A stretch of 64,000 nt of DNA from Blasia pusilla (Eukaryota), in assembly GCA_050084515.1 (NCBI GenBank), contig CM114271.1:17174001-17238000 (forward strand), given 5' to 3'. Of this stretch, positions 12,487-64,000 are shown in pieces. Position 1 is the stretch's first letter; every line of letters begins with the position of its first letter. A model generated the notes under the pieces. It did no database searches. It saw only the letters and a program-made list of their open reading frames with translations, and was not told the DNA's origin. The position numbers and the translations under genes are program-made.

Positions 12487-13702
12487 TTGTTTTGCCTAAT
12501 GGTGATCTGTATGGCTTTGGAGAATGGGACAAAAGCAATTAATCCATTGGATAGATGCTCAACTACTTTTGTCTGTGGAGATCAACATGCATCTTTGTCA
12601 TATGTCACAAATGTCATCTATAGCCATTACAAAATTCATGAACATGGCTTGAAGTGGGATGATGTGAATAGGTCTCACAGGAAGAAGAAACCACTTGTGC
12701 TTGGACTTAGCCATAGAGCGTAGTGTTGGTGTACCTTGACCATGCATGCTCCACCAATCAGAGGGACCAAGCTACCATCTCACGAGCTTGTGCAAAAATA
12801 CTACATCTCACAAGTTTGTGCAAAAATCTTGTCCATCCAAGGCCATTTACCCCACTCTTCGTAGACTAGATCAAGAGAATGTGATACACATCCACCCCAA
12901 GGAATATAAGGAAACTTTGCTTCGATAAGTTTCCCTGCTGCTCGCTCATTTTGGGATTTCCCCTTGATGTCTATCGACTCAATCATGACCTCACCTTGTG
13001 GACACAAGACCATGATGTTCACTAAAGACTTGCTCCTCACATTGGTCCAAGAATCCGTGATGATCGTGACCCCCAAACGTAAAGTATCCAATATGCCATC
13101 CACCTTTTCCTTCACCTTCCCTATATGTTTCTCAAGTAGGGTGGTGCGCAACGAATTATGATTAGGAATTGAGTAACCCTTCACCTTTGATGTTGCCAAC
13201 ACTACTTGTTTGAAAGCATCTTTCCCTACTACGTTGAATGGTATTCCACATTCGTAGAAACAGTTCGCCCATGTATCATTTGCAACTTCTATTCTTGGAT
13301 GTTGAAAGAATCTCTCAGGTCGGCTTGCTTCTTCCTAGAACTTATGCATTCCTCGAGACTATCATACGGTGGCATGTTCGCAACCGCATCAACATTTGGC
13401 ACAACATAAACACTATATCCTATCTGTTGCAAATCTATTTGTAATGGAATAATCTCTTCCACTTCACTCGAAGGTCTCGCTTCCCTTATTTGTCAATTTC
13501 CCACAAGTATCCTGTTTCGAAGATCCCGTTGCACCCTAGGAGGGTCCTTCACATATGCATTGGCATGATGGATTTCATGATTCCCATCCTTTTTCTTTCC
13601 TCTCTCTTGTGTAAAATGCTCCACCATCCGCGTGCTATGATAGATTTTCATAAAATAGGAATAATACTTGCATTGCCATCTGCTTGATGTTCCACCTTCC
13701 AT
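12487..13702 (-). pseudogene. hAT transposase remnant (BED-like zinc finger + DUF659)
   Basis: WQCKY..........RM..H (BED-like, ~13640-13700). LRTTLL..., GVTIITDSWTN....LVN and IPWGGCVSHSLDL are typical of DUF659 hAT transposases. Stops and frameshifts are present. Confidence 0.8.
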
Positions 13703-45089: not shown

Positions 45090-47507
45090 GTGATCCATCC
45101 AACTCACTCACTCACTCACGGCGCGGAAACGAGCGTGAGGGATAGCGGAGACGGAAACGAGGAAAGGCACGGGTTTGGCGGAGAGGCTAGGAGTAGGGGG
45201 TCAGTCAGTCACAGATGGGGTATGTCTGCTGGGGGTGGGGCCGAGAGGCAGAGAGGCGGCGGGGCCAGGGCAAACGCAAGAGGAGGTGGCACCCGACATT
45301 AGGACAGCAACCCCACAAAACACACATTCGTTTTCGACTGGAGTGGAGAGGGAGTTGTGGATCTTTTCGACTGCAGTTAGTTGTCTGGAACTGTACTGTA
45401 AAGAGACTGACGAAAGACTGCGAATCGGATTGGTGATCTCCCGGTTCTCTGTACGTATTCCGTCACGGAGGCGTAGTTACTGCGTTCGCGCGTGGCGTGG
45501 AGTGCGGTGACGGTGACGGAGAGTTGGACGGGGAAACCTTCCATGGGTCCCGAACTGCAAGACGGTATTTGGCATGGGAGGTAGGAAGCTCCCACCTCAA
45601 TCGTCCGCGAGTGGCGGTGAGGAGACGAGCCATCGATCCGTATGGCGAGAGCGATACTAGAGGGCTGGGGACACCCCCGGGAGGAGACCACCATAAACCG
45701 GCACGCTTTGTAGGTTACTCTCGCGATTGAATCACTGAGGTGCCCACCTGGTTGCGTGTTTGCCGCTGGGCTCTCTAGCGCGCGCACAATTTGCGAGTAT
45801 AGTCTCGAGATCTCTTGAACCGAGGGGCCTCTCTAGATCTTCTCGTCATATGATCCAGTGCCAGCCCACAAGTCTGGTCGCGAACTTTAGTGTTGTTCTA
45901 GCAGCTCTAGAGTTGTCGACATATGTATGCGTCTCGCTTCGCTCAACTAGTTCAAGAGCGAGCGGTTTCTAGAGACCCATGCGGGGACCTCGTCGGAGTT
46001 GTGAACGTCGTCCAGGGCGTCTTTTGCTCCGTGCCAGGAGTGCATACCGCCCTTCGCGCCGTTTCTTGTTGAGAAAGCCCTGAGTGTTTTCAGAGCACCG
46101 TGAGCATCTGGACAATTTTGGCTATGTGCTCTATTCCGGGTTCAATGCGCCGCCGTTAGATCTACTAGACTTCTCATGAATGACCAGCTTCCACTACCCA
46201 CCAATGGTCAGTGTGCTCTTTACGATCGGACTATAGCCTGGAAACTCACCCCACGTACGTCGACCTTCAAAGCTCAGAAACTTGTCGGGGATGCTTCCAT
46301 CTTGTCGTCGTCTTCCCAGATATCATTCACAGATCTAGAAGATGAAAACGATATCTAGTAGTGGCCTATGGTGCCTCTGGGTCGATTCTAGTTGCAATTG
46401 TTGGATCGCTGTCCGGTCTGATGCTTGTAACTAGTGAGTTCCAACGAAATCGTTGTGTCGAAAACAAGGAAACCCGCCGCGCCTTGATTGATTGATGCGC
46501 TCTCGGAGCTTTGGACCATCTGCCCTAAAGCTTTTCCGGGGCTTGAGCGCGCGCAGACCGGCGTATCTAAAAGTGACTTCGTGTTCGAACGTCGAACGTC
46601 CTACTCGAAGATTGATCACGCGTGCGTACGGGTGGCAATCAGTACCCGACTTCGGATATCTCTTCAGGACGATCGACAGATCGAGACGGTCACCTAGGCG
46701 AGGACTTCCTCGCCAGCTGAAGATGAAACTTTGCCATGACTCGTTGCTTGAGTAGACGACACAGGAATTCGAACCGGTGGTCAGCGGAAGGTTTTGCCCA
46801 CAGCAGATACACTTCCACAAAGCCAGATGAAACACAGCTCACGGATAGGTGTCATGCCATCAAATGCAGCACCCTCTCCATCGGGGCCGGTAAGTGTTGG
46901 TTTCGTCCCTTCCTTCTACATAGGAAATGGATTATGTCTCGGCGAACGTGTACTTTGCTTCACTGTTTCAAGATGTCAATTCGAGAGGTTTTCAAAGGTA
47001 ATCGTTGGAGAGACTAGTCTGCACCGAGCTGTGTACATATCTTAGAAGGCGGTGGCTGTCGAGAAACACCAGTACTACATATACTCATCTATCTAGAGTT
47101 CTAGAGTCTGACTTTGCAGGGACGAATGGGCGGCGATCATCAGGGACTGAAGGTTCCGTAGAATTAGAGTCTTGGTTCAAAGTTCTGATTACATCCTGGT
47201 CAACTTAATTCTTGTATATCTGTGTGTAGATGTAGGGTTTTCTTCCTTTCTTTCTGTCTTTAGACTGTCAGAAATTGATCGAGTCCACACGGGTACGACT
47301 TGTGCTTTGGATCTGTGAGAGGAAGTCCTATTTTGTATATGTTGGGGTCTGCACTGTGTGAAGTGCTCAAGCACAAGTTGTGCATGTGGGTTGGGGGTGC
47401 AGTTGTCACCGAGGGCAGAGACAGCTCTCAGTCCAGAAGGACCGTTACTGAGAGACAGCAATGCGCAGCCTTACTTGGCTTTGGATGGGAGTAATCACGA
47501 ATCGACT
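45090..47507 (+). promoter_or_regulatory. Probable long GC-rich 5' leader of the MYB gene with a UTR intron (46890-47263)
   Basis: Sharp AT-to-GC transition near 44.7-45.1 kb. (TCAC)n pyrimidine patch at ~45102-45119. Donor G|GTAAGT at 46890. Polypyrimidine acceptor TTCTTTCTGTCTTTAG ending at 47263. TSS is inferred. Confidence 0.5.
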
Positions 47508-50500
47508 ATGAGTGGAGGCAAGAACTCGCACATAGAGCTTGATTCCTTGGGTCTGGGGTACGCTCTCGGTCATCTGCTGAACGGACCCCGTTCAGGCATC
47601 TTGCCAACCTGTCTGACGAATCAGGGTGCCACTGACTACATCTCCTCCGAGGTATCACACAACGAGAGCAGATGCTTTGATAGGTCGCAACCTGCGTTGT
47701 TCCACACAGACGCTGGTCCTGAGAATCACCTCCAGGCTATGAGCCTTCAAAGTTTCAAGCAGAAGCTGTCTTTGAGTGCGAATTTGCATGACTATAGAGA
47801 TCTACAGGGTGGGAGAAAATCTGTGTTCGAATTATATAAAACTGTCAGCGGACCCCGGAGAGGAAGGAGAAGAGAGAAGAGCTCGTTAGAACAAAAGGCC
47901 AGACTTGCTGCCGACTGGCAAAGCCGTGAAATATCGGCGACGTCCTTGGGGCGTGTACCAATCGTCGACAGTGAAGGGAGCAATTTGAGCCTAGGAGCTT
48001 GCGGCACTGGCGTGGTCGTTGAGATGGACATGCATATGGATTGGGGCACGGAATTGATGAAAGATACCAACAATCAGACAGGAAATGGCAACGCCGCCAT
48101 GCAATCCATGACGAATGCGTCTCAGAGGTGGTGTAGCGATAAGAGGGCAAAGACCAATCAACAGATGGATTATGGACCGACTATTGGCTCGTCGCACCAG
48201 CCTACTTCCGAATGGCAAACTGACGGGGGAGGTAGCCTGAAACGACCTCTGGTGTGGAAGTCTATTCCGAGCAAGGCACCCTTCGCGGTTGAGGTCAGCA
48301 GCGCTGAGGCAGCTCACAAGCAGAAAACCGCAGTTTACGCAGCTGCAACTGGTCATGATTCAAGAGAATCTGGGAAGATAGACCATCCGAGCCTGACCGC
48401 GGGCGTTCAATATGTCTCTCCGAAAAGCTTGAGCAATGAAGGCTTCAGCACCAGCGAAGCGCAGGCCTTTGGTGACATCTGCGGTTCTTCTACTGAGGAC
48501 GTCGCGGTCACAACACTTAGCAGTCAGCAGCTTCATAATCAAGCAGTCGATCCTCAAATCATCGATATCGTCCCTGGTAGCGTCTCTTCTGGCATCAGTG
48601 CCGAGCCTCTGGACTTTCAGCAAGGCTCGGGCTCGCAGGATCTTAGTCGACTCTGGAAGCATCTATCTCAAGAAAGACGATATCAGCAGATCGTAGAACG
48701 AGCTCGAGTACGAGCTGCAGCAACTTTCCTCACGCACACACCAAACTGCAGCACCGACAAGGAGCTAGAGGAAGATGATCTGGAGAGCGAGGCCAACACA
48801 TCTCAGTTGCAGCAATTAATCAACGCTCAACAGCAGAGCGGTCTACAGGCTCTACATTTGGCTGCGGCCCAGCAAAGCTCCGCTGCAGAACCAGCACTGG
48901 GCAAATGTGATTCAAGCCGTACATTCAATAGTTTACATTCATCAGATCATGGGGGTGCCTTCTCGGACGCCGGTGAATCTTGGCCCGAAGGTGTCTGTGT
49001 GGGGGACTACTTGATGCTGACCAGTGCCATGCACAAGGCACAGATTCTGGATCTGCAGCTGGAGGAAAATCAACGCCACCGACAGCAATCTAGCAAGCGA
49101 TCTAGAGAGAGTACGATGGTAGAGACTGATCATGTCAGGCTAGACAGCGGACAGTCCAGTAAGAGGGAAGCCGAAGATGGTAGCTGTCCGGGCGGGAGTT
49201 GTGGTTCGGTAACACCGAGGCAAAATTACTTTGCTGACGAATGTTCAATCGAAATGCAGAGACCCACAGGGGACCAGCAGCTCACCGCAAGGGAGGCATA
49301 CGAGAAGGCCAAAAACGAGCAGCACGATGATCTGCCTGGAAAACGTATGTTCAAGCGTTCTTCCAAAGGAGGCCCGAGGAGGCCGAACATTATCAAAGGT
49401 CAATGGACTCCCGAGGAAGATAGGTGAGAGCTCCATCAACGAAATGAATCATGCGGTTTCCATTTTCAAACTCTTCTTTCCTAGCTAGAGGCTCAAATAA
49501 TCTATTCCTAGACAGCCACGAAACTGCCTAGACCTGTGTTTGAGCAAAAATTGCTTGCGATGCTCTCAATTATGCTTGTCACTGACGACGTGAACTAGCC
49601 ATCAGAAGCGACCCTGGAACACATAATTTTGATGTCCTTGAGATAGTCGATGGTATATACCCCTAGCCCGAATCCGTTTTCCCTGCTTCCTTAAATGAAG
49701 CGAAGGCAAGCGGCTGCGTGCCAAAAGTACTCACTTCCAACGTCCCGCAAGCCTGAGGCAAGGATTCGTGTTACGTGTTTATACATCCGAAGCAGGGTCC
49801 GGGTCTACATGTCGACGATAGATCTGGTAGAGAAGTGCGGCTTCTCCAAACTGAGCAATCATCAATCTGTATAATTTGTGCCGCAACGAATGCACGGGTA
49901 TCGACTCCTGTACATATCTCCTTGAGCGGCACGAACGGTTGGTGAATCTTTGGATTAGCTTTAATTGTGCTCAGCAGGTTACTTCCAGTCCCAGCACATT
50001 GCTGTTGCCGCATGCATAGATCACTGCGCGCTAGACGTAGATAGGAAATAGATCGGTCCGTCGCAGAAACCCCAATCCGGATATGGGAGTCTAGCATCTT
50101 ACCACGACCGGGTCCTGCCCCTCGTGCGCTCCATGTACAGCTAGATCGAAATCCCGATGATTGTTCAAAGGAAAATCTTGACTGGCGCACTGGACATTCA
50201 TCACGTGGAAAGCTCTACAGTACGATGTGTGCTGGCAGGAACGTAATTCTGCATCGTCCAATTTGCGCTCGCTCGTTCGAGATTGACGTCTTTATTGTCT
50301 GAACCGAGAGCTCCGTACGTGTAGTAACAAACTGGCTTGTGTTGTACATGACTAAAGTAAGCTAACCTGGTGAAAATCCATCTTCTCTCCTGCAGATACT
50401 TGATGGAGCTTGTTGAGAGACATGGCCAGCAAAGGTGGTCACATATAGCCACCTACTTGACGGGGCGAATTGGCAAGCAATGTCGAGAGCGCTGGCATAA

Positions 50501-53500
50501 TCATCTTCGCCCTGATATCAAGGTCCTTTTCTCTTCCTTTTCAAGTGCACGCGCACTCGAGAAGACTCATTCATTAACATTGTTGTGTAGAATCGTAGAT
50601 AGCCGGACGGTTGTTGGGGCCGTTCTCGCGTTTTTATTCTACTGGACATCGCCTGGAATCGTCAACGCTTTGAATGAATTCGTTGTATGTTGATAAATTC
50701 GGAGCTTAATTTATCTGACCAAGGTGCTTTATAAGCACACACTGGTTCATAATTTCCAAACTCGCATTGGTTGTGCGGTTTACGATGAGATTTCACGTTG
50801 AGTTTTGATGCTTTCGCAGTGGTCTTCGCTGCGGCTTTCAATGTATAGCTAGAACATTCTCCATCACCGGTTTAGGTTGTAAGTCCTCAATTATGCGCGT
50901 ATACTCATTCGTTAGTTGGTTTGAAATCTTCTGCTCTTTACGCATAGCCAGTTTGCCAAAATCGAACGATTGACCAGTCTCAAGAGCTTGAAAGTGAATC
51001 TGCGTGCACTCGTGCGTTCGGGTGCTGATCATGAACGTAAGATGACTTCACATACACGTTTCGAGATATGTACCTCATATGGGGCTGAATTTTCCATGCA
51101 GAGAGACGGATGGAACACTGAAGAGGAGGAAGCGCTCGTGCACGCGCACAACAAACTGGGCAATCGCTGGGCAGACATAGCCAAGTTGATCCCCGGCCGG
51201 ACTGAAAATGCAATAAAAAATCACTGGAACGCGACCATGCGTAGGAAGGATCTCCGGAGAAAGCACCGCAAAGCAGTGGATGGATCGACTGACGGGCTGG
51301 AGGTAGTCCCTCGCTGTACTGTTCTTCGTGACTACCAGCAGAAAGTGATTCAGCACTCCGAGCAGAAAGGCTCAGGCTCAGCACCGCCATCTGATGGCGA
51401 GCGTCAGGTCTCTCTAGACGAGGTCCACACCAGAACACCAGATCTGGAATCACCTCAGGTGACATGTGACTCGACGGCTGGCTGGAGCTATGATCGAAGG
51501 AGTGGCGGAACCAGTAACCAAGTGGACGAGAATTCTTTCCTGGTTCAGTCTCGGCCGTCGTCTGAAGAGATGAGCCCTGCAGAAGTGGACCATTTGTTGC
51601 GCATGATATGTGCCCAAGATCAGGAGGACGAAGGGTCCCGGATTGCTGCAGGACTCCACCAGCAAGGAAATATGGTTCTTCAGGCTAACGGTTTCGGGCC
51701 CTTCGGACCGTTTAATGGGCCATTCACCTTACAGACACGAGTGTCTGTGTGGGGTCAAGGGGCTAGTAATATGAGCTATGGCGGCAGCCCTCAGGTGACA
51801 GTTTGGGGTCACGGAGGCTGGAGTGGAAATAGTTCGTATGATGGCGCAGGCAGCAGCGGTAACCCTCAGATGGTGTCAGGAACAGTGGGTGCAGAAATGT
51901 GGGATGCCTTCCCACAAATACCTGCTGGAGCTACAGCAGGTTTTGTGGCTTCTTCGTCGTCTTCTGAGCCGAAAGTGGCCCCAGATAGATGTCCCCCGGC
52001 CGGCCAGCACGCGGGATCATGCGGTCCTCCAGCTTTGACTGCCTGCGGTTGCTGCGAGGATGCCAATTTCCATAACCTCCCGCAGGATTCGCAGAGCTTG
52101 AATGTCACAAACGCACAGTTCAGTTGCGCTGAGAGGGTAAGCGAAGGCCATTCGAATTCGTCTCTTCCTTATCCTCTCGAAGCGGAACAATCCTCCGCGT
52201 CACGATGTAAGCTGACAGTTTTGGAAACAGCTGCAGTCTTGAGTCCCAACAACAGAGGATCTGGAACTCTCGCTGATCTAGACGCCGGGTGCTTGACCAC
52301 TCAACAGTACCAGATCGACAACCTACTGACATCGACTTTGCATCTGGATTGCGTACAATTCGCAGGAGGCCAGTCCACAGGCGGCTGCAACATCACTCAG
52401 CTTCTGTCACAAGAGAAAGTGCTGGAGAGGCTCGCAACTTATAATCTAGGAATCGCAGCTGCAGGAGGCGCGAGCAACAAGAATTTGATGTTACAACCTT
52501 CATCCTCAAATGTGCACGTCGACGGCTCGGAGTTCAGCAATAACAACCACGAGCATTGTCCGACCTTGCAGCTGGAATCTTTCAAAACGACTTCGGGTCC
52601 GGTTGTTGTCCAGGCCTTGAACACAGTTGATTATCAGCAGGACCCGACTTGTGGATTCCCCAAAAGTGATTCCGCCGCAGCACAAGCAGTGGCGACCGGT
52701 CCCTCAGCGGTCATGGATCTGTGCTTTCTCCAAGATAATATCTCAGGAAGGGGACAAACTAGTCCCCACTACGGTATGGTCTCTCAAGAAGATTGGATGA
52801 GATCGAACTACGGGGGCCCGGCAAACGGGGCGCAACCCAAGAACAGTGGCTTGGCGCAATATGGCCATGGAGAGGATCTCGTCGAATTCCTAGCCATGCC
52901 TTTGGATCTCGGGGTCTACATAAGAAAGATGAAGAATAATTTCGCTCGGGAGGTGGGTTCGTATGCGTGTACAGTGCCGCACGTTCGAGCCGATGGGCAA
53001 CGCATCACAGGCATAGACTACGAGCAGCGTCCAGCCCCAGTGGCTGAAGCCAAACTTAGGGATATCTGTCGTCAAATGAGGGCTCAGTGGCAAATCGAAT
53101 CCATCGCCCTAGCACACAGGTAATCACGATTGACCTTGATCGGTTATGCACATGATGAATGCGACTGCCCAAATACAAATATTGGAAAATACTCAGTTTC
53201 CTCCATAGATTTAATCCTTCTCTGCATGTAGTGCAACTGTTGAACCACAGATAAAGAGCCTCGAACTCAGCTCAGCCTGGATGAATAGTCTTAACAGTTT
53301 GCAACCCCTAGATCATTAGTAATCTGATCATTATGAAGACTTACAAAGATCTAGAGAGAGCATTTTCCGAGTCAGGACGCTTATGAAGATTCATGTTGGG
53401 ATGTGGATTGCAGGGTGGGGTTTGTACAAGCGGGGGAGGCGAACGTGGCCATAGTGGTCTCGAGCTGCGATTTCATGGAGTCGATGAATGCTGTGCAATA

Positions 53501-53555
53501 TGCTGTGGGTAGATTTAGGAGTGATAATATTTTAGCCTGCCACTACATTGTGTAG
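47508..53555 (+). CDS. FGMYB: R2R3-MYB transcription factor, MYB98/MYB64/MYB119/FGMYB-type, ~1400 aa, with C-terminal MoaE-like domain
   Basis: Exons 47508-49423, 50396-50522, 51102-53119, 53414-53555 (GT-AG, phases 2/0/2; 4203 nt). R2: [54 protein letters not shown]|. R3: [48 protein letters not shown]. The start is the first in-frame ATG of the 47358-49427 ORF. The symbol is a clade-level assignment. Confidence 0.88.
52869..53555 (+). other. Degenerate MoaE/CNX6 (molybdopterin synthase large subunit)-like domain, in frame at the MYB C-terminus
   Basis: [22 protein letters not shown]...[79 protein letters not shown] follows the MoaE pattern G+.V..L.YE.Y.PMA...L..IC...R..W.I..IA.AHRLG.V..GE.SV..AVSS. 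Confidence 0.8.
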
Positions 53556-58700: not shown

Positions 58701-61700
58701 CTAGTAAGGTGCCCGTGCGATGCACGGATAAAATAAGGTAGTATAAAATGAACGGGTGAAATAAGGTAGTATAGACTCAAGATACATTTTATCAAATTTA
58801 TTTCATCTCAATATTTCTTTATATATTACATTTCGTGTGTAGTTATTTGAATGTTCATCTCTTCCAATGGTAATGTGGATGGAACTTCTCTTTCCTACTC
58901 TAGATAATGCTACATACAATTGACCATGAGAAAATACAGGAGTAGGCAAGTAAATGCCAACCTTTTGCAAAGTTTGACCTTGCGACTTATTAATAGTCAT
59001 AGCAAAAGCCGGCCTAACAGGGAATTGAAACCTACGCAAATCAAATGGCAAACCAGAATCTGATGCAATCAATGGAATACGTGGAATAAAAACGCGATCT
59101 CCAATATTTTTCCCAGTGATAATTTCAGCATCGATGCAATGTCTCATAAATCCACGAATCACCAATCTTCTTCCGTTTGCTTGTCCATGTGACCCATTCA
59201 TGTTTCGCAAGAGCATGATTGGTGCACCAATCTTCAAACACAAACGATGTGGAGGAAGTCCAGAAGGCAAGCATGTGTTCAAGAATTCAGTTGGATAGAT
59301 ATGACTCATTCTCTCATTCGGAATAGAGTCGACGCTAAGGTAAATATGCTCCTGTACACAATATGTAATGTATTAGTGAGAAATGGAAATATTAGTATCC
59401 AAACTTCCAAAAAACATATTGATAGAGGTAAAAATGAGATAAGTCTAAAGGATTACCTCTCAGGGGAACCGAGACATAATTGTGCATTTATGTAAATCAA
59501 CATCTTTATTTCTCAGAGCCAAAATAGTTGTATCTCTTAAGAATTCAATGTCATGGAATCGGCTAAGAAAATCTCCATAGATCAAATCAATAAGATCACA
59601 TATTTTGTTACTATTAGTAACAATATCAGATGGTAATCGTAAGAAGTCTTCTCCCAAATGAGGGTGTAAAAGTACACGACCCTCTCCCACCTCCAGTAAC
59701 CAATCAGCAAAAGCTTGTTGTTCATCACGCAAATGACCATCCAACCTTTGAATTCTTATGTTTGTTTTCAACTTCATAACCCTTACATTAGACCAAAGAG
59801 ATGATCTCTTTATGGTGGCTTGGATGATTTGCGGTCGATCCCCATGACGAACAACAGGCAACACTTGACGAAAATCACCACCAAATACCATAAGTTTTCC
59901 ACCAAACGGTAATTGCCGTAAATCATCCGAAACAACTCCCATGATATCCTGTAAGGTCCGATTCACGGCCTCAAAGGCATGACGATGAGCCATAGGTGCC
60001 TCATCCCATATAATGAGCATCGCCTCACGGATTAAGCGCGCTCCATCACTATCGACCGATAAACTACCAGCAAAAAGGGAAGAAAATTAGAAGCTGAAAC
60101 AATTTGAGCAATTAACAAAATCTTGCTAATTAAGACAACTTGTGGTACTTACTTGCAAGTAGAGCTTTCATGAAGATTAATGGGGATCTTGAAGCGTGAA
60201 TGAGCAGTACGTCCTTCGTCTAACAATAGCGCAGCTATACCAGATGATGCAACGGCCAATGCTATATCTCTAACGCTCCTTACACTTGCAAGAAGAAGAT
60301 TATATAAAAATGTTTTTCCAGTTCCACCTGGACCATCGATGAAAAAAACTTTTGGAGATGGTGGAGCATTCGCGCATATTTGATCAAGCTCATCATGTAT
60401 AGCGTCCCATATCATGCGTTGTCCTTTGTTTAGGCACGCTTCTTCCAATTGCACTTGCTCAAATAATTTTTCCGTGTCATATGATAGCTCTTGTTCCTCC
60501 AAATATGAGTATGAATGAAGGCTTTCGAAATTAGCTTGGGGCATGTGTGGGAAGTCAGATAGTCTCTTTCCTTGATCTTGTAAATAATAATGGACTTCCA
60601 ATAATGCGGTATTAATAATAGCATCATCAACAGCAAGGTTATGAATTCTTGTTTTCTGTAATGGATGAGCTCAAAAAAAGGTTAAAATTATGGTTAGTAT
60701 CTGGGACTGTCAATGTAAGTGAGATGGAAAACGTTACAACTATTAGGAATGAAATTGTTTTGAAGGAGTTGTAGTATTGGATTCTTACTTGACGTCGTTC
60801 ATATAAGAGATCTTCGACCAATGGAACCAAGAACTGACTCCATAATATTGCAGTTGGTTGAGCGGGTGTGTTATAAGTGGAATACTTGCAAAGAGTCGGC
60901 GTAATGAAGAACCCGTACGGATTATGGAAGCTTCTTCAAAGCAAGTAAACACCTCCCTATCATCCTCAAGAAGTCCTAATTGGATAGCAGCCTCCTTGAA
61001 TGTTGGACATAATATCCCATGAACCGTTCTTAAGCATTCGTATGTAGTTGCTCCTCGAACATGATGGAGGAGTAATCTCAACCAATGTCGTTCTCCTTCA
61101 CCTATGACAAAGTAAAAAAGTGAGCTCATCTATCTATATATAAAAGAAAATGGGCGAGGCTGGTATATAAAAAGGAGTAAATATATATAAAGAATTTAAG
61201 TTTTTACCTGGATGAGTAAGGTATAAGCGGCCAATGGGATGACCACAATCATTAAATTTTTTCACCCTACGAATCCATCTCTTGTTACTCCAATGATAAT
61301 ATGAAGGGAAATCTATATATAGATACTGTTGAGAAGTGGAGTCAGATAGATTGGTAGCAAACCATTGGGTCAAAGTTGTCTCTCTATTTATTTGCAAAAT
61401 ATTTTGAGGAGCGTCAACATCATTGAAGTAGACTATTTGTTGCTCCGGAAGATGAACTGCTAATCTCACAATACTTGGAAGTTCAGCATGTAGAGAAAAC
61501 TTGAAGAGACGCCAACATGCTTCTGAAGAAGATATATATCTGGAAAAATAAGAATTCCAAGTATTCAAATTAGGAGAATGAACATGATGGATAAGAAATA
61601 GAATGGAATGCATCACATCAATGAAAGCAGAATCATACCTGCATCAAGATATGATGTTTGTCGTCAATAACATCAATTGCATTGGATGTATCCGTGTCCT

Positions 61701-64000
61701 TTGACAACTTAAATGACACCGCATCAGACCCCTTATAGACATATTTGTATAAGTACTTGACGGCAAAAACACTACTTGTGATTTCAAGATTAATGTGACA
61801 ATCGAAGAGGGTGCATAACATAGGATTGTAGGGCACAACCCAACGATTATCCAGTGAATGTTGGCTCTTAATTATCGCCCTCCCATTCTTCAATCTAAAA
61901 AAATACAATAACAAATCATAAATATGCTTTCCAATACTACATCATATGTCTTACAATAATACTGAGATAAGACAAAATTAAAGGATCCTTACCTACGATA
62001 GATTGGATAGCCATCTTCCTCTCTCTGTAGTGTTGGCTAAAAGCCTTAGGATAGCCTTTGGTGCACTTTTTGGTTTCTTTATCCATACATTGTGCATTTG
62101 GATTTAATGGTCCACATGGCCCATGAACCATGCAATTAGCAATGAGAATACAACCTTGGATGGGTAGATTGATCAGGATCTCTGCTGAAATAATACGATC
62201 ATAATCATGAGTGGCGTGGTTTATCCTCCCGCCCCTAATATAATAAGAACGTGCATATCGGCAAACCTTTTTTGGAATTCCACCACATGGATACATCCTG
62301 CAACTCGTCCTAATATTTGCTTCTTGATGATAAGCCTTAATAACTCTTTCTTTTTCTTCTCAAAAACCCGTACAACCAAATCTGGTCGGTCTGCAACCGA
62401 TTGACCAGGAATAAGGTTGATGTAATCTCCTCCCACTTTGGATTGCATGTCATAGTCAAAAAGTAGTCCGGCTTCCCCAAATGTCTTACAATTGCCATTG
62501 CATCTTGATACACTTGATGCATGTGACGCGGTCCTCCAATAAAAGAAGAAGGTAATATAATGCGCCTCCCAACCTTGCGACTATCCACATCATGTCGATG
62601 TATAGCATCCTTTACACCTTGATATAATTCAACCCTTAACTCCTTTTGATTCAAGCGAACCCATGATAATCGTTGCATCTCTACAGTTGCATAGAGGTCA
62701 ACCATATATTCTTGAGTAAGTCGACCAAACCGCAATAACCGATTGTCATCTTCGCCTTCAATCCGCGTTTGAAGTCGAAAACATGCAAATTGCAAGGCCG
62801 TAACACTCTTTGTTTTTCTTTCCACAAAAATATCACCATCAAGTCTTTCCTCATCCATCCAATCTTCTAAAGGATCCACGTGTCCCTCCTCATGAATAAT
62901 CCGGCCCAATCGTTCGGATTCTCTATGACCTTCAATCCTCCCGAAGGGTATTCCACGATGCCAACCTGCTTCACCATAGGTAAATAGGAGAACAAAATGT
63001 AGTGGAATATATGCTTCATTGAGGTCTGATATACGCTTCACTCCTCCTCCATGTAGTCGTACAATTATATCACGATGGTCAACATGTTCACTACCATCAC
63101 CCGGCAATATAGCCGCAACCTCAGAAGCAATTGGTAAATTATAACGCTTAGCATCGAGACCTCTCTTACTTGCCTTGAGGATGATCTGCATATTAACGTC
63201 AATTGCTTCATATGCCATATGACGAAAGATCTTCACATATGGGTTGCATGCATGTAACATGTCTTGTAGCCCTCTCAAAATATCTGAATTAAGATCAGAA
63301 GATCTAGACATAACTCTTTCACGATTCTCCAATTCATTTGCGGTATCATGGATGTAGAGTTGAGCAAATTGGGGATGACCCCCCATATCAGGATGTAAGG
63401 ATCCAATAGAATGATAAATTCCGCCTTGGATCCTAAAGTGTCCGGTGCCACCTATTTGTTCATTTATATGCACTCCAGTAGAGGCAAGTTGAAGCGCAGA
63501 ATTGTAAGCTCTAGCATGTGTAAGAAAATGAAGACTTCTAGGACCAACACCTGAAATCAAGGATTTCAGGAATGGAGGAGACGATTTCAAGAGGGGTAAA
63601 TGTATTCTCCCATGGCCACAACACATGCCATATGGTGAGTCACTAATCTTTAAGCCTTTCACCCTTTCACATTTCCAATGTAAAGCATGACATGATGGGC
63701 ATATCTCTGTCATATAACCCAACGTATGACGACCGTTGACACGATTCAAACTCCTCTGTAATCTCAACTTCCTAATATCATTTTCTTGGAAATTTGGTCT
63801 TCTTGCAAGATTCAATAATGTATTTAATCTTACAATCCTATCAACAACAGACAACGGAGGAACCCTAGAAGCATTTTGTATAGTGGCACTTTCTGGAGAT
63901 AACACGACTCCATTAATGGTAGAAGACGAAGGATCTACTCTTGAGCTTGCTTCATCCTCGGAACGGGGAAGAGTTGAAGAATTCTCACCAACTTCATGTT
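58701..64000 (-). mobile_element. Helitron encoding a disrupted Rep/PIF1-helicase; runs off the window
   Basis: 3' end CCGTGCATCGCACGG hairpin + CTAG|T at 58701. PIF1 motifs [51 protein letters not shown]. Rep motifs LPSSFIGGPRHM...PDYFLTMTCNPKW and KYLYKYVYKG. Contains introns (e.g. ~60064-60152) and frameshifts. Confidence 0.95.

Follow-up and report, generated by a model that had tools for sequence, protein, structure and literature searches.

A 64,000-nucleotide stretch of the genome of the liverwort Blasia pusilla (GenBank assembly GCA_050084515.1, contig CM114271.1, positions 17,174,001 to 17,238,000 of the forward strand; hereafter the window, with coordinates counted from its first letter) carries a gene for an R2R3-MYB transcription factor of the FGMYB type, whose predicted product ends in a domain related to MoaE, the large subunit of molybdopterin synthase. 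If canonical splice sites are used, exons 47508..49423, 50396..50522, 51102..53119 and 53414..53555 join into 1400 codons with zero internal stops. The frame 50925..53123 on the forward strand is uninterrupted from the R3 MYB repeat to the exon end AG/gtaatc at 53119; if splicing did not occur there, it would read AGG TAA, with the TAA at 53121-53123. The acceptor ag occupies 53412-53413 and exon 53414..53555 continues in phase, AG and G together forming an Arg codon. An initial annotation, made from the letters alone, had proposed this exon end and this phase-matched acceptor, and our reading of the sequence, together with a spliced contig described below, agrees with both.

The beginning of the gene needs correction, since the start proposed by the initial annotation (47508) lies too far downstream. 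That ATG falls inside exon 47403..49423, and an additional coding exon (46827..46889) gives an N-terminus matching those of the Marchantia, Calypogeia and Physcomitrium proteins, so that coding most likely starts at ATG 46827 or 46854, the first junction being a predicted one. The five-exon model yields 1456 amino acids (aa), compared with 1400 for the downstream ATG, and because the start lies upstream of 47508, exon 51102..53119 becomes the fourth coding exon and not the third. Across the predicted first junction the joined N-terminus shares 36 of 45 residues with the Marchantia protein (P0185), 33 of 45 with that of Calypogeia (P0186) and 23 of 45 with that of Physcomitrium. The N-terminal motif that spans this predicted intron, MPSNAAPSPSGP on its upstream side and LSPRAE... 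on the other, probably corresponds to the conserved amino-terminal motif which the part of the literature available to us describes, in a figure legend, as common to MpFGMYB and the PpFGMYBs (PMC6418429). A search for the pattern of this motif did not recover it in either Riccia gene model. The conserved stretch LSPRAE..SPEGPLLR is common to the window, Marchantia, Calypogeia and Physcomitrium proteins. The coordinates of the features are collected in Table 1.

Table 1. Features of the FGMYB-type gene and of its surroundings in the window.
Feature	Position	Strand	Remarks
Upstream coding exon, MKHSSRIGVMPSNAAPSPSGP, start of the conserved N-terminal FGMYB motif	46827..46889	+	second ATG at 46854
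Predicted first intron, 513 nucleotides, GT..AG	46890..47402	+	donor GTAAGT at 46890; acceptor GTGCAG ending 47402
Long N-terminal exon, begins LSPRAETALSPEGP, reaches the start of R2	47403..49423	+	open frame 47319..49427; donor TAG/GTGAGA
Exon with most of the R2 Myb repeat	50396..50522	+	acceptor CTGCAG; donor AAG/GTCCTT
Exon with R3 Myb repeat, 541-aa linker and first 82 MoaE-like residues	51102..53119	+	ends CAG/GTAATC
R2R3 Myb DNA-binding domain, two introns inside	49389..51248	+	residues 628-730 (1400-aa numbering); PF00249, PF13921
MoaE-like part 1, from EDLVEFL (strand 1) to two bases of the Arg codon	52872..53119	+	72% identity to the Calypogeia tail
Phase-2 GT..AG intron within the MoaE-like domain, 294 nucleotides	53120..53413	+	skipped exactly by the X1 contig; site and phase shared with L001
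Last exon, MoaE-like part 2, (R)VGFVQAGE...SSCDF...	53414..53555	+	stop TAG 53553..53555
Open reading frame matching DUF659	12801..13331	-	domain match
PIF1 helicase pieces	58803..59369, 59460..60083, 60149..60667	-	domain matches
Helitron_like_N	within 62337..63998	-	domain match

Searches with exon 51102..53117 place the gene among relatives of FGMYB. The long matches were MpR2R3-MYB1 of Marchantia polymorpha (P0185, 1279 aa, 55% identity) and proteins of Calypogeia fissa (P0186, 1513 aa, 47%), Riccia fluitans (P0187, 1405 aa, 48%), Riccia sorocarpa (P0188, 1327 aa, 45%), Physcomitrium patens (P0189, 1348 aa, 32%) and the lycophyte Diphasiastrum complanatum (P0004, 743 aa, 36%); the same search returned shorter moss, Selaginella and Ginkgo proteins as well as angiosperm proteins named MYB119, MYB64 and MYB98. 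The nearest named relative of the whole predicted protein is again MpR2R3-MYB1, with 59% overall identity. A tree built from 11 full-length proteins grouped the five from liverworts in one clade (support 100/99), within which the window protein was sister to Marchantia and Riccia (100/100; joined at 89/92) and Calypogeia lay outside. On its sequence, the window gene is accordingly classed as an R2R3-MYB of the FGMYB subfamily, the tree being one that holds no other MYB subfamilies. We infer that P0185 is MpFGMYB itself; a literature search on MpR2R3-MYB1 matched MpR2R3-MYB19 only. The Marchantia FGMYB gene is overlapped by an antisense long non-coding RNA, SUF. In the window, an open frame of 234 aa runs antisense to the MYB and linker exon (50980..51684, reverse strand).

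The C-terminal part of the protein, approximately 129 aa, is by sequence homologous to MoaE and its eukaryotic counterparts MOCS2B and CNX6. The exon tail alone (52800..53117) matched the Pfam profile PF02391 with 30.9 bits (E 3.4e-7) over profile positions 5-76 of 114; this exceeds the curated gathering score of 23.4 bits and hence what chance would give. The last exon scored 12.9 bits over positions 79-110, a collinear match that lies under the cut-off when taken alone. In the full exon 51102..53119, Myb_DNA-binding (59 bits) and MoaE (26.4 bits) were detected, and the Pfam scan of the exons examined matched only Myb and MoaE. When the tail of the Diphasiastrum orthologue was used as the query in a sequence search of the PDB, human MOCS2B was the best match (E 6.7e-8) and E. 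coli MoaE followed with 1.8e-5. An AlphaFold2 model of this tail (132 aa), built on an alignment (A3) of 80 rows comprising 7 fused-type and 73 true MoaE sequences, reached a predicted local distance difference test (pLDDT) of 93.8 and a predicted template modelling (pTM) score of 0.87. Compared against the PDB with Foldseek, the model superposed best on MOCS2B (4ap8 and 5mpo, template modelling scores 0.81-0.85, E 6e-10), with bacterial MoaE next; 33 matches had E<=1e-3 and, among the matches listed, all were MoaE-type chains. In the model, ELDLIDLV forms strand 1 (residues 4-8) and the terminal residues form a strand at the location of PIWKKE. Membership of the MoaE fold is predicted on this basis, the modelled chain being the lycophyte orthologue rather than the joined domain of the window.

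Data from sequencing runs bear on the junction inside the domain. Two sequencing runs, the RNA label of both being a guess, were compared with the window: run X1 contains 0.19 of the sampled words and run X2 nearly none. Three contigs of run X1 match the window without mismatch, two of them at 47961..48283 and 49020..49198. The third, 358 nucleotides long with 0 mismatches, joins 52952..53116(+3) to 53411(+3)..53603 and omits 294 nucleotides with GT..AG ends in sense-strand orientation, which is the predicted 53119/53414 junction. The search for reads across this junction, which the initial annotation had recommended, was in this way answered by one contig. No X1 contig covers exon 50396..50522, positions 51102..52951 or the remaining junctions, and the presence of the MYB exons and the last exon on one molecule goes beyond what this single contig demonstrates.

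The SxHR pair (H103-R104) and the FxGxxR loop are catalytic motifs of MoaE. We mapped these and other active-site positions by aligning the Diphasiastrum tail with E. coli chain 1nvj_A and transferring them to the window through the columns of two further alignments: A2, in which the window stands beside true MoaE rows, and A4, which contains 9 fused-type rows with Calypogeia as the query. FxGTTR is replaced by YACTVP in the window and by C(T/I)VP in its relatives. At the SxHR site the window has SSCDF, so that H103-R104 becomes D-F, while the relatives show SSSSF, SSTSF or TSQDF, that is S-F in Diphasiastrum and Calypogeia and D-F in Physcomitrium. K119 corresponds to Arg in the window, Calypogeia, Diphasiastrum and P0039 and to Gln in Physcomitrium. 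The K126 position holds Cys in the window (NILACHYIV before the stop) and Gln in Diphasiastrum (PFLQRLIC before the stop), and the chains end 4-6 residues past it (four in the window), near the location of PIWKKE, whereas true MoaE runs approximately 25 residues further. The window domain therefore lacks all three marks of the enzyme, namely the Lys at K119, the PIWKKE/K126 segment with the C-terminal extension, and SxHR together with FxGxxR. In bacterial MoaE, K119 is essential and K126A is nearly 60-fold slower, according to the portion of the report consulted (PMC4443979). With K119, K126, H103-R104 and FxGxxR all replaced and the chain cut short, the domain would make no molybdopterin by the known route, and its sequence identifies it as something other than a molybdopterin synthase. 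The same positions are replaced in all relatives with full tails. In addition, the Gly of the FxGxxR loop is an invariant Cys in 9 of 9 rows of A4 (Cys34 in the numbering of the Calypogeia tail), and the residue after C(T/I)VP is His in 5 of the 9. This fixed Cys could lie at an interface or serve as a metal or redox site.

The replaced residues also bear on two alternative explanations. Because the fold of MoaE can bind both precursor Z, the ligand of the MoaE complex in PDB entry 2qie, and molybdopterin, the domain might sense a pterin intermediate, either cyclic pyranopterin monophosphate (cPMP) or molybdopterin, and thereby link molybdenum cofactor status to female differentiation; we regard this as very improbable, because the basic residues that contact the substrate are replaced and the pocket is truncated. 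Docking of a ubiquitin-fold partner (CNX7/MoaD, URM1 or a relative), which would tie the factor to a sulfur-carrier or ubiquitin-like system and has been proposed for the MoaE-like part of animal MBIP, is easier to entertain, given that MoaD is the native partner of MoaE and that the MoaE-like region of MBIP, a transcription-related protein, has lost catalytic residues yet retains 7 of 10 MoaD-contact residues, as stated in the sections seen (PMC9228816). Such docking still appears rather unlikely for the plant domain, in which the pocket residues that grip the MoaD tail and the substrate (H103, R104, K119, K126 and FxGxxR) are replaced and the C-terminal segment is gone.

The fusion is not confined to Blasia. 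The MYB-MoaE architecture was also found in Calypogeia fissa, Physcomitrium patens and Diphasiastrum complanatum, in four clusters and at one metagenome locus, which means that full tails occur in liverwort, moss and lycophyte relatives. PF02391 scored 55.8 bits in Calypogeia P0186 (profile positions 5-112 of 114), 44.1 in the fragment P0039, 42.1 in Diphasiastrum and 36.5 in Physcomitrium P0189. An exhaustive search of representative sequences with the Diphasiastrum tail returned 132 proteins at E<=1e-3, five of them of the fused type (P0004, P0039, P0040, P0042 and P0049); 126 resemble ordinary MoaE in their length and in the part matched, and 73 of these entered A3. The remaining one, a repetitive protein of 1415 aa (P0078), was a spurious match and was dropped. 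Homologous last exons are present in Calypogeia, Physcomitrium, Diphasiastrum, P0039 and the metagenome locus (L001), which was the one confirmed locus among three pattern matches of a metagenome scan. In L001 the exon ends ...IALAH+AG/gtagag, and past the intron gggacag/G opens RVGIVGAGEIYAAVVVSSQDPANSTNAVNFAVNKLQNEAILQQELIV followed by a stop; both the site and the phase are those of the window. The open reading frames that cover the exon only (P0003, P0040, P0042 and P0049) all end ...IALAHR, which indicates that the intron site is conserved. A word-index search with the 106-aa tail against longer proteins gave no match, which reflects a limit of the index, since relatives exist.

Comparison by region shows how strongly the domain is maintained. 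Identity between the window protein and Calypogeia is 42% in the N-terminus, 96% in MYB, 43% in the linker and 71% in the MoaE-like domain; the corresponding values are 25%, 91%, 28% and 45% for Physcomitrium and 27%, 86%, 23% and 50% for Diphasiastrum. The MoaE-like domain hence ranks second in conservation, behind MYB, in all three comparisons. Among 80 MoaE-type domains placed in a tree, the 6 fused ones formed one clade (100 in the Shimodaira-Hasegawa-like approximate likelihood ratio test) whose stem measures 2.08 changes per site, and within it the window grouped with Calypogeia (92) and L001 with Physcomitrium and P0039 (93). A single fused clade with liverwort and moss subclades agrees with an old fusion that happened once and was then inherited vertically, and these sequences argue that the domain has one origin and that its history in liverworts, mosses and one lycophyte is that of the species. 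The midpoint root of the tree falls on the long stem of the fused clade, with plant CNX6 among the candidates for its sister group. Loss or truncation of the domain in several lineages, described below, could suggest that the tail is a decaying, functionless relic of a fusion, or an accident of annotation or splicing. This is most improbable in view of its rank as second-best conserved region across liverwort, moss and lycophyte, the retention of intron site and phase, the existence of a spliced contig and the short internal branches of the fused clade. It can be held with high confidence that the domain is real, conserved, non-catalytic and derived from MoaE.

Most of what the initial annotation claimed about the protein has held up. 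Its assignment to the FGMYB type agrees with the R2R3 Myb repeats, with P0185 as nearest named relative, with the MYB119, MYB64 and MYB98 matches and with the N-terminal motif, and the MoaE homology it proposed is borne out by the above-threshold Pfam score and the MOCS2B match. The AlphaFold and Foldseek comparison it called for gave, with the Diphasiastrum tail, a model superposing on MOCS2B/MoaE structures, and the survey of orthologues it suggested recovered both parts on one protein in Calypogeia, Physcomitrium and Diphasiastrum. Its list of replaced motifs (FxGxxR as YACTVP, SxHR as SSCDF, K119 as Arg, PIWKKE missing) was accurate, and the loss of catalytic residues combined with strong conservation is what its idea of a non-enzymatic co-option would predict.

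In several lineages the domain is largely missing. As annotated, the Marchantia and Riccia proteins track the window protein as far as EDLVEFxxxPxDLGYYxRK and then continue into short unrelated tails; the alignable domain residues in these models number 31, 40 and 23 of 129, and the Pfam scan did not match MoaE in P0185, P0187 or P0188. These three proteins part from the window protein directly behind Y(V/L)(R/Q)K of helix 1 and reach their stops 6-21 residues further on, and the Marchantia tail ...GDEYGSCGF is faintly like ...AREVGSYAC of the window. Such tails, known from gene models only, would fit either a domain that was cut short and is decaying or wrongly predicted 3' ends, and one loss in the common ancestor of Marchantia and Riccia would suffice to explain them. 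A short moss paralogue (Physcomitrium P0174 and Ceratodon P0005) ends straight after E(L/I)D(L/F)(M/I)E(L/I)(V/I)AS, and the Selaginella and Ginkgo proteins extend approximately 40 unrelated residues past the first-strand motif. The module would seem dispensable in some lineages, Marchantia and Riccia, one moss paralogue, Selaginella and seed plants having kept the first strand only, E(L/M)DL(I/V)E(L/M)V.

This first strand recurs widely. The motif E(M/V)DL(I/V/M)EM(V/I) was found within the last 200 residues of 21 of 31 proteins (P0008-P0038, Ginkgo P0022 included); three were near-misses (P0011, cut at EMD, and the variants P0013 and P0027), and seven had none. In MYB64/119/98-like proteins a recurring form of the C-terminal motif is (K)KEMDLIEMV(S)SSQFSQGS. 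A literature search for the letters of the seed-plant C-terminal motif gave no match. The seed-plant motif aligns with strand 1 of the MoaE-like domain, and we infer that it is a vestige of that domain. Its persistence in mosses (P0005 and P0006), Selaginella, Ginkgo and the 21 of 31 proteins, where it outlives the rest of the domain, would be expected if the domain, and chiefly its acidic-hydrophobic strand 1, were a surface for transcriptional activation or co-activator docking and no dimeriser. We consider this unlikely, though to be taken seriously, since it leaves unexplained the 45-71% identity over the whole fold in the other lineages. A broader and rather speculative idea, which we hold to be a long shot, is that the ancestral land-plant FGMYB carried a pseudo-MoaE switch for pairing or for a ubiquitin-fold or sulfur-carrier partner, and that the seed-plant EMDLIEMV is its surviving strand 1, serving the same partner surface; strand complementation with CNX6 or another protein of the MoaE fold would be one way for it to act.

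Modelling of two copies of the domain points towards self-association. For the Diphasiastrum domain, ESMFold2 without an alignment gave a two-copy score of 0.54, compared with 0.00 for the best of 3 controls. Among 30 proteins solved as same-chain pairs, 21 attained the mark used for a dimer, whereas none of 23 solved as single chains did so; of the eukaryotic proteins 17 of 29 attained it, yet just 1 of the 7 that lack an older solved relative. Contact agreement between runs was at least 94% and the pLDDT of the partner at least 83. The modelled interface consists of helix 1 (residues 15-24) and the strand 29-39, REVGSYVCTVP, which pairs with itself across the axis and includes the invariant Cys; residues 15-17, 20-21, 24, 29-37 and 39 are among those at the interface. 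On this model, the strand REVGSYxCTVP and helix 1 would dimerise the factor, which would in turn pair two MYB DNA-binding domains on target promoters. The best overall explanation, with a probability of roughly 0.55, is that the domain would serve as a structural protein-protein interaction module, most likely a homodimerising one; homodimerisation as its main role, taken by itself, falls somewhat short of even odds. Of the roles raised in the initial annotation, the homodimer is the one that gained computational support, a ubiquitin-like partner and co-activator recruitment being further candidates.

Several points weigh against this explanation. The dimer score may be a memory of solved MoaE dimers, which would signify likeness and not binding, and the chain modelled was the lycophyte orthologue. 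When AlphaFold2 was given the fused-only alignment A4 (9 rows, Calypogeia query), pLDDT was 48.8, a value that speaks neither for nor against the fold; the confident fold model thus leans on the true MoaE rows (73 of 80). Splice support consists of one contig from one sample whose RNA label was guessed. Finally, the annotated M. polymorpha protein is without most of the domain, and since this is the one bryophyte FGMYB found with a genetic test, its female-promoting function must there be independent of the domain; that Marchantia manages without it argues for a modulatory rather than an essential role.

No published description of the MYB-MoaE fusion was found in literature searches, although supplements of the FGMYB studies may show such tails. 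The domain is unmentioned in the main-text portions consulted of PMC6418429, PMC11020262, PMC11923412 and PMC12409103. The Calypogeia, Physcomitrium and Diphasiastrum records already bear an automatic Pfam MoaE label, so that the architecture is visible in databases yet seems undiscussed in print within the reach of these searches; it was most likely overlooked because the model species, as annotated, is without the domain. FGMYB is the female-promoting switch of Marchantia, and a second conserved domain alters the picture of the ancestral protein. According to the part of one study that was accessible, FGMYB has been put forward as the gene that ancestrally determined sex in hornworts and perhaps in land plants (PMC12409103). 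The domain gives a handle on the mechanism of FGMYB, be it dimerisation or partner recruitment, and may explain where the C-terminal motif of MYB64/119-type proteins in seed plants came from. It also supplies an instance from plants, separate from that of animal MBIP, in which a molybdenum-cofactor enzyme fold is redeployed in transcription control.

Outside the gene, the window contains Helitron-type fragments on the reverse strand (58803..63998), split over several frames, and the DUF659 match listed in Table 1, a domain which we take to be common in hAT-type transposases.

The window protein resembles known systems in different ways. With MpFGMYB and the FGMYB proteins in general it shares the R2R3 domain, the N-terminal motif and the long linker. 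The FGMYB paper, so far as seen, draws only the MYB domain and the N-terminal motif (PMC6418429), to which the window protein adds a MoaE-like domain; the annotated Marchantia and Riccia proteins end shortly past helix 1, whereas the window protein carries the full domain. With MoaE, MOCS2B and CNX6 the domain has in common the PF02391 homology, the predicted fold and the core W...IA..HR.G....GE, but it lacks the C-terminal segment of approximately 25 residues, its catalytic positions are replaced, and it is fused to a transcription factor. As a precedent for a role in transcription, the initial annotation correctly named the Drosophila ATAC complex; the pages consulted point to a closer one in the catalytically degenerate MoaE-like N-terminus of vertebrate MBIP, likewise a MoaE-derived module in a transcription-related protein that has lost most catalytic residues (PMC9228816). 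In the Drosophila fusion Mocs2B/dMoaE-MBIP, the same partly viewed source reports, it is the MBIP part and not the MoaE part that recruits the protein to ATAC (PMC9228816). The parallel with MBIP and ATAC is therefore one of functional analogy only. The plant event differs in being independent, in having no MBIP part and in placing the module on a sequence-specific DNA-binding domain. The BZR1-BAM factors (Arabidopsis BAM7 and BAM8), in which an inactive beta-amylase-like domain is attached to a DNA-binding domain, provide another example of a former enzyme used as a regulatory module, although both the enzyme family and the DNA-binding family are unrelated to those of the MYB-MoaE protein.

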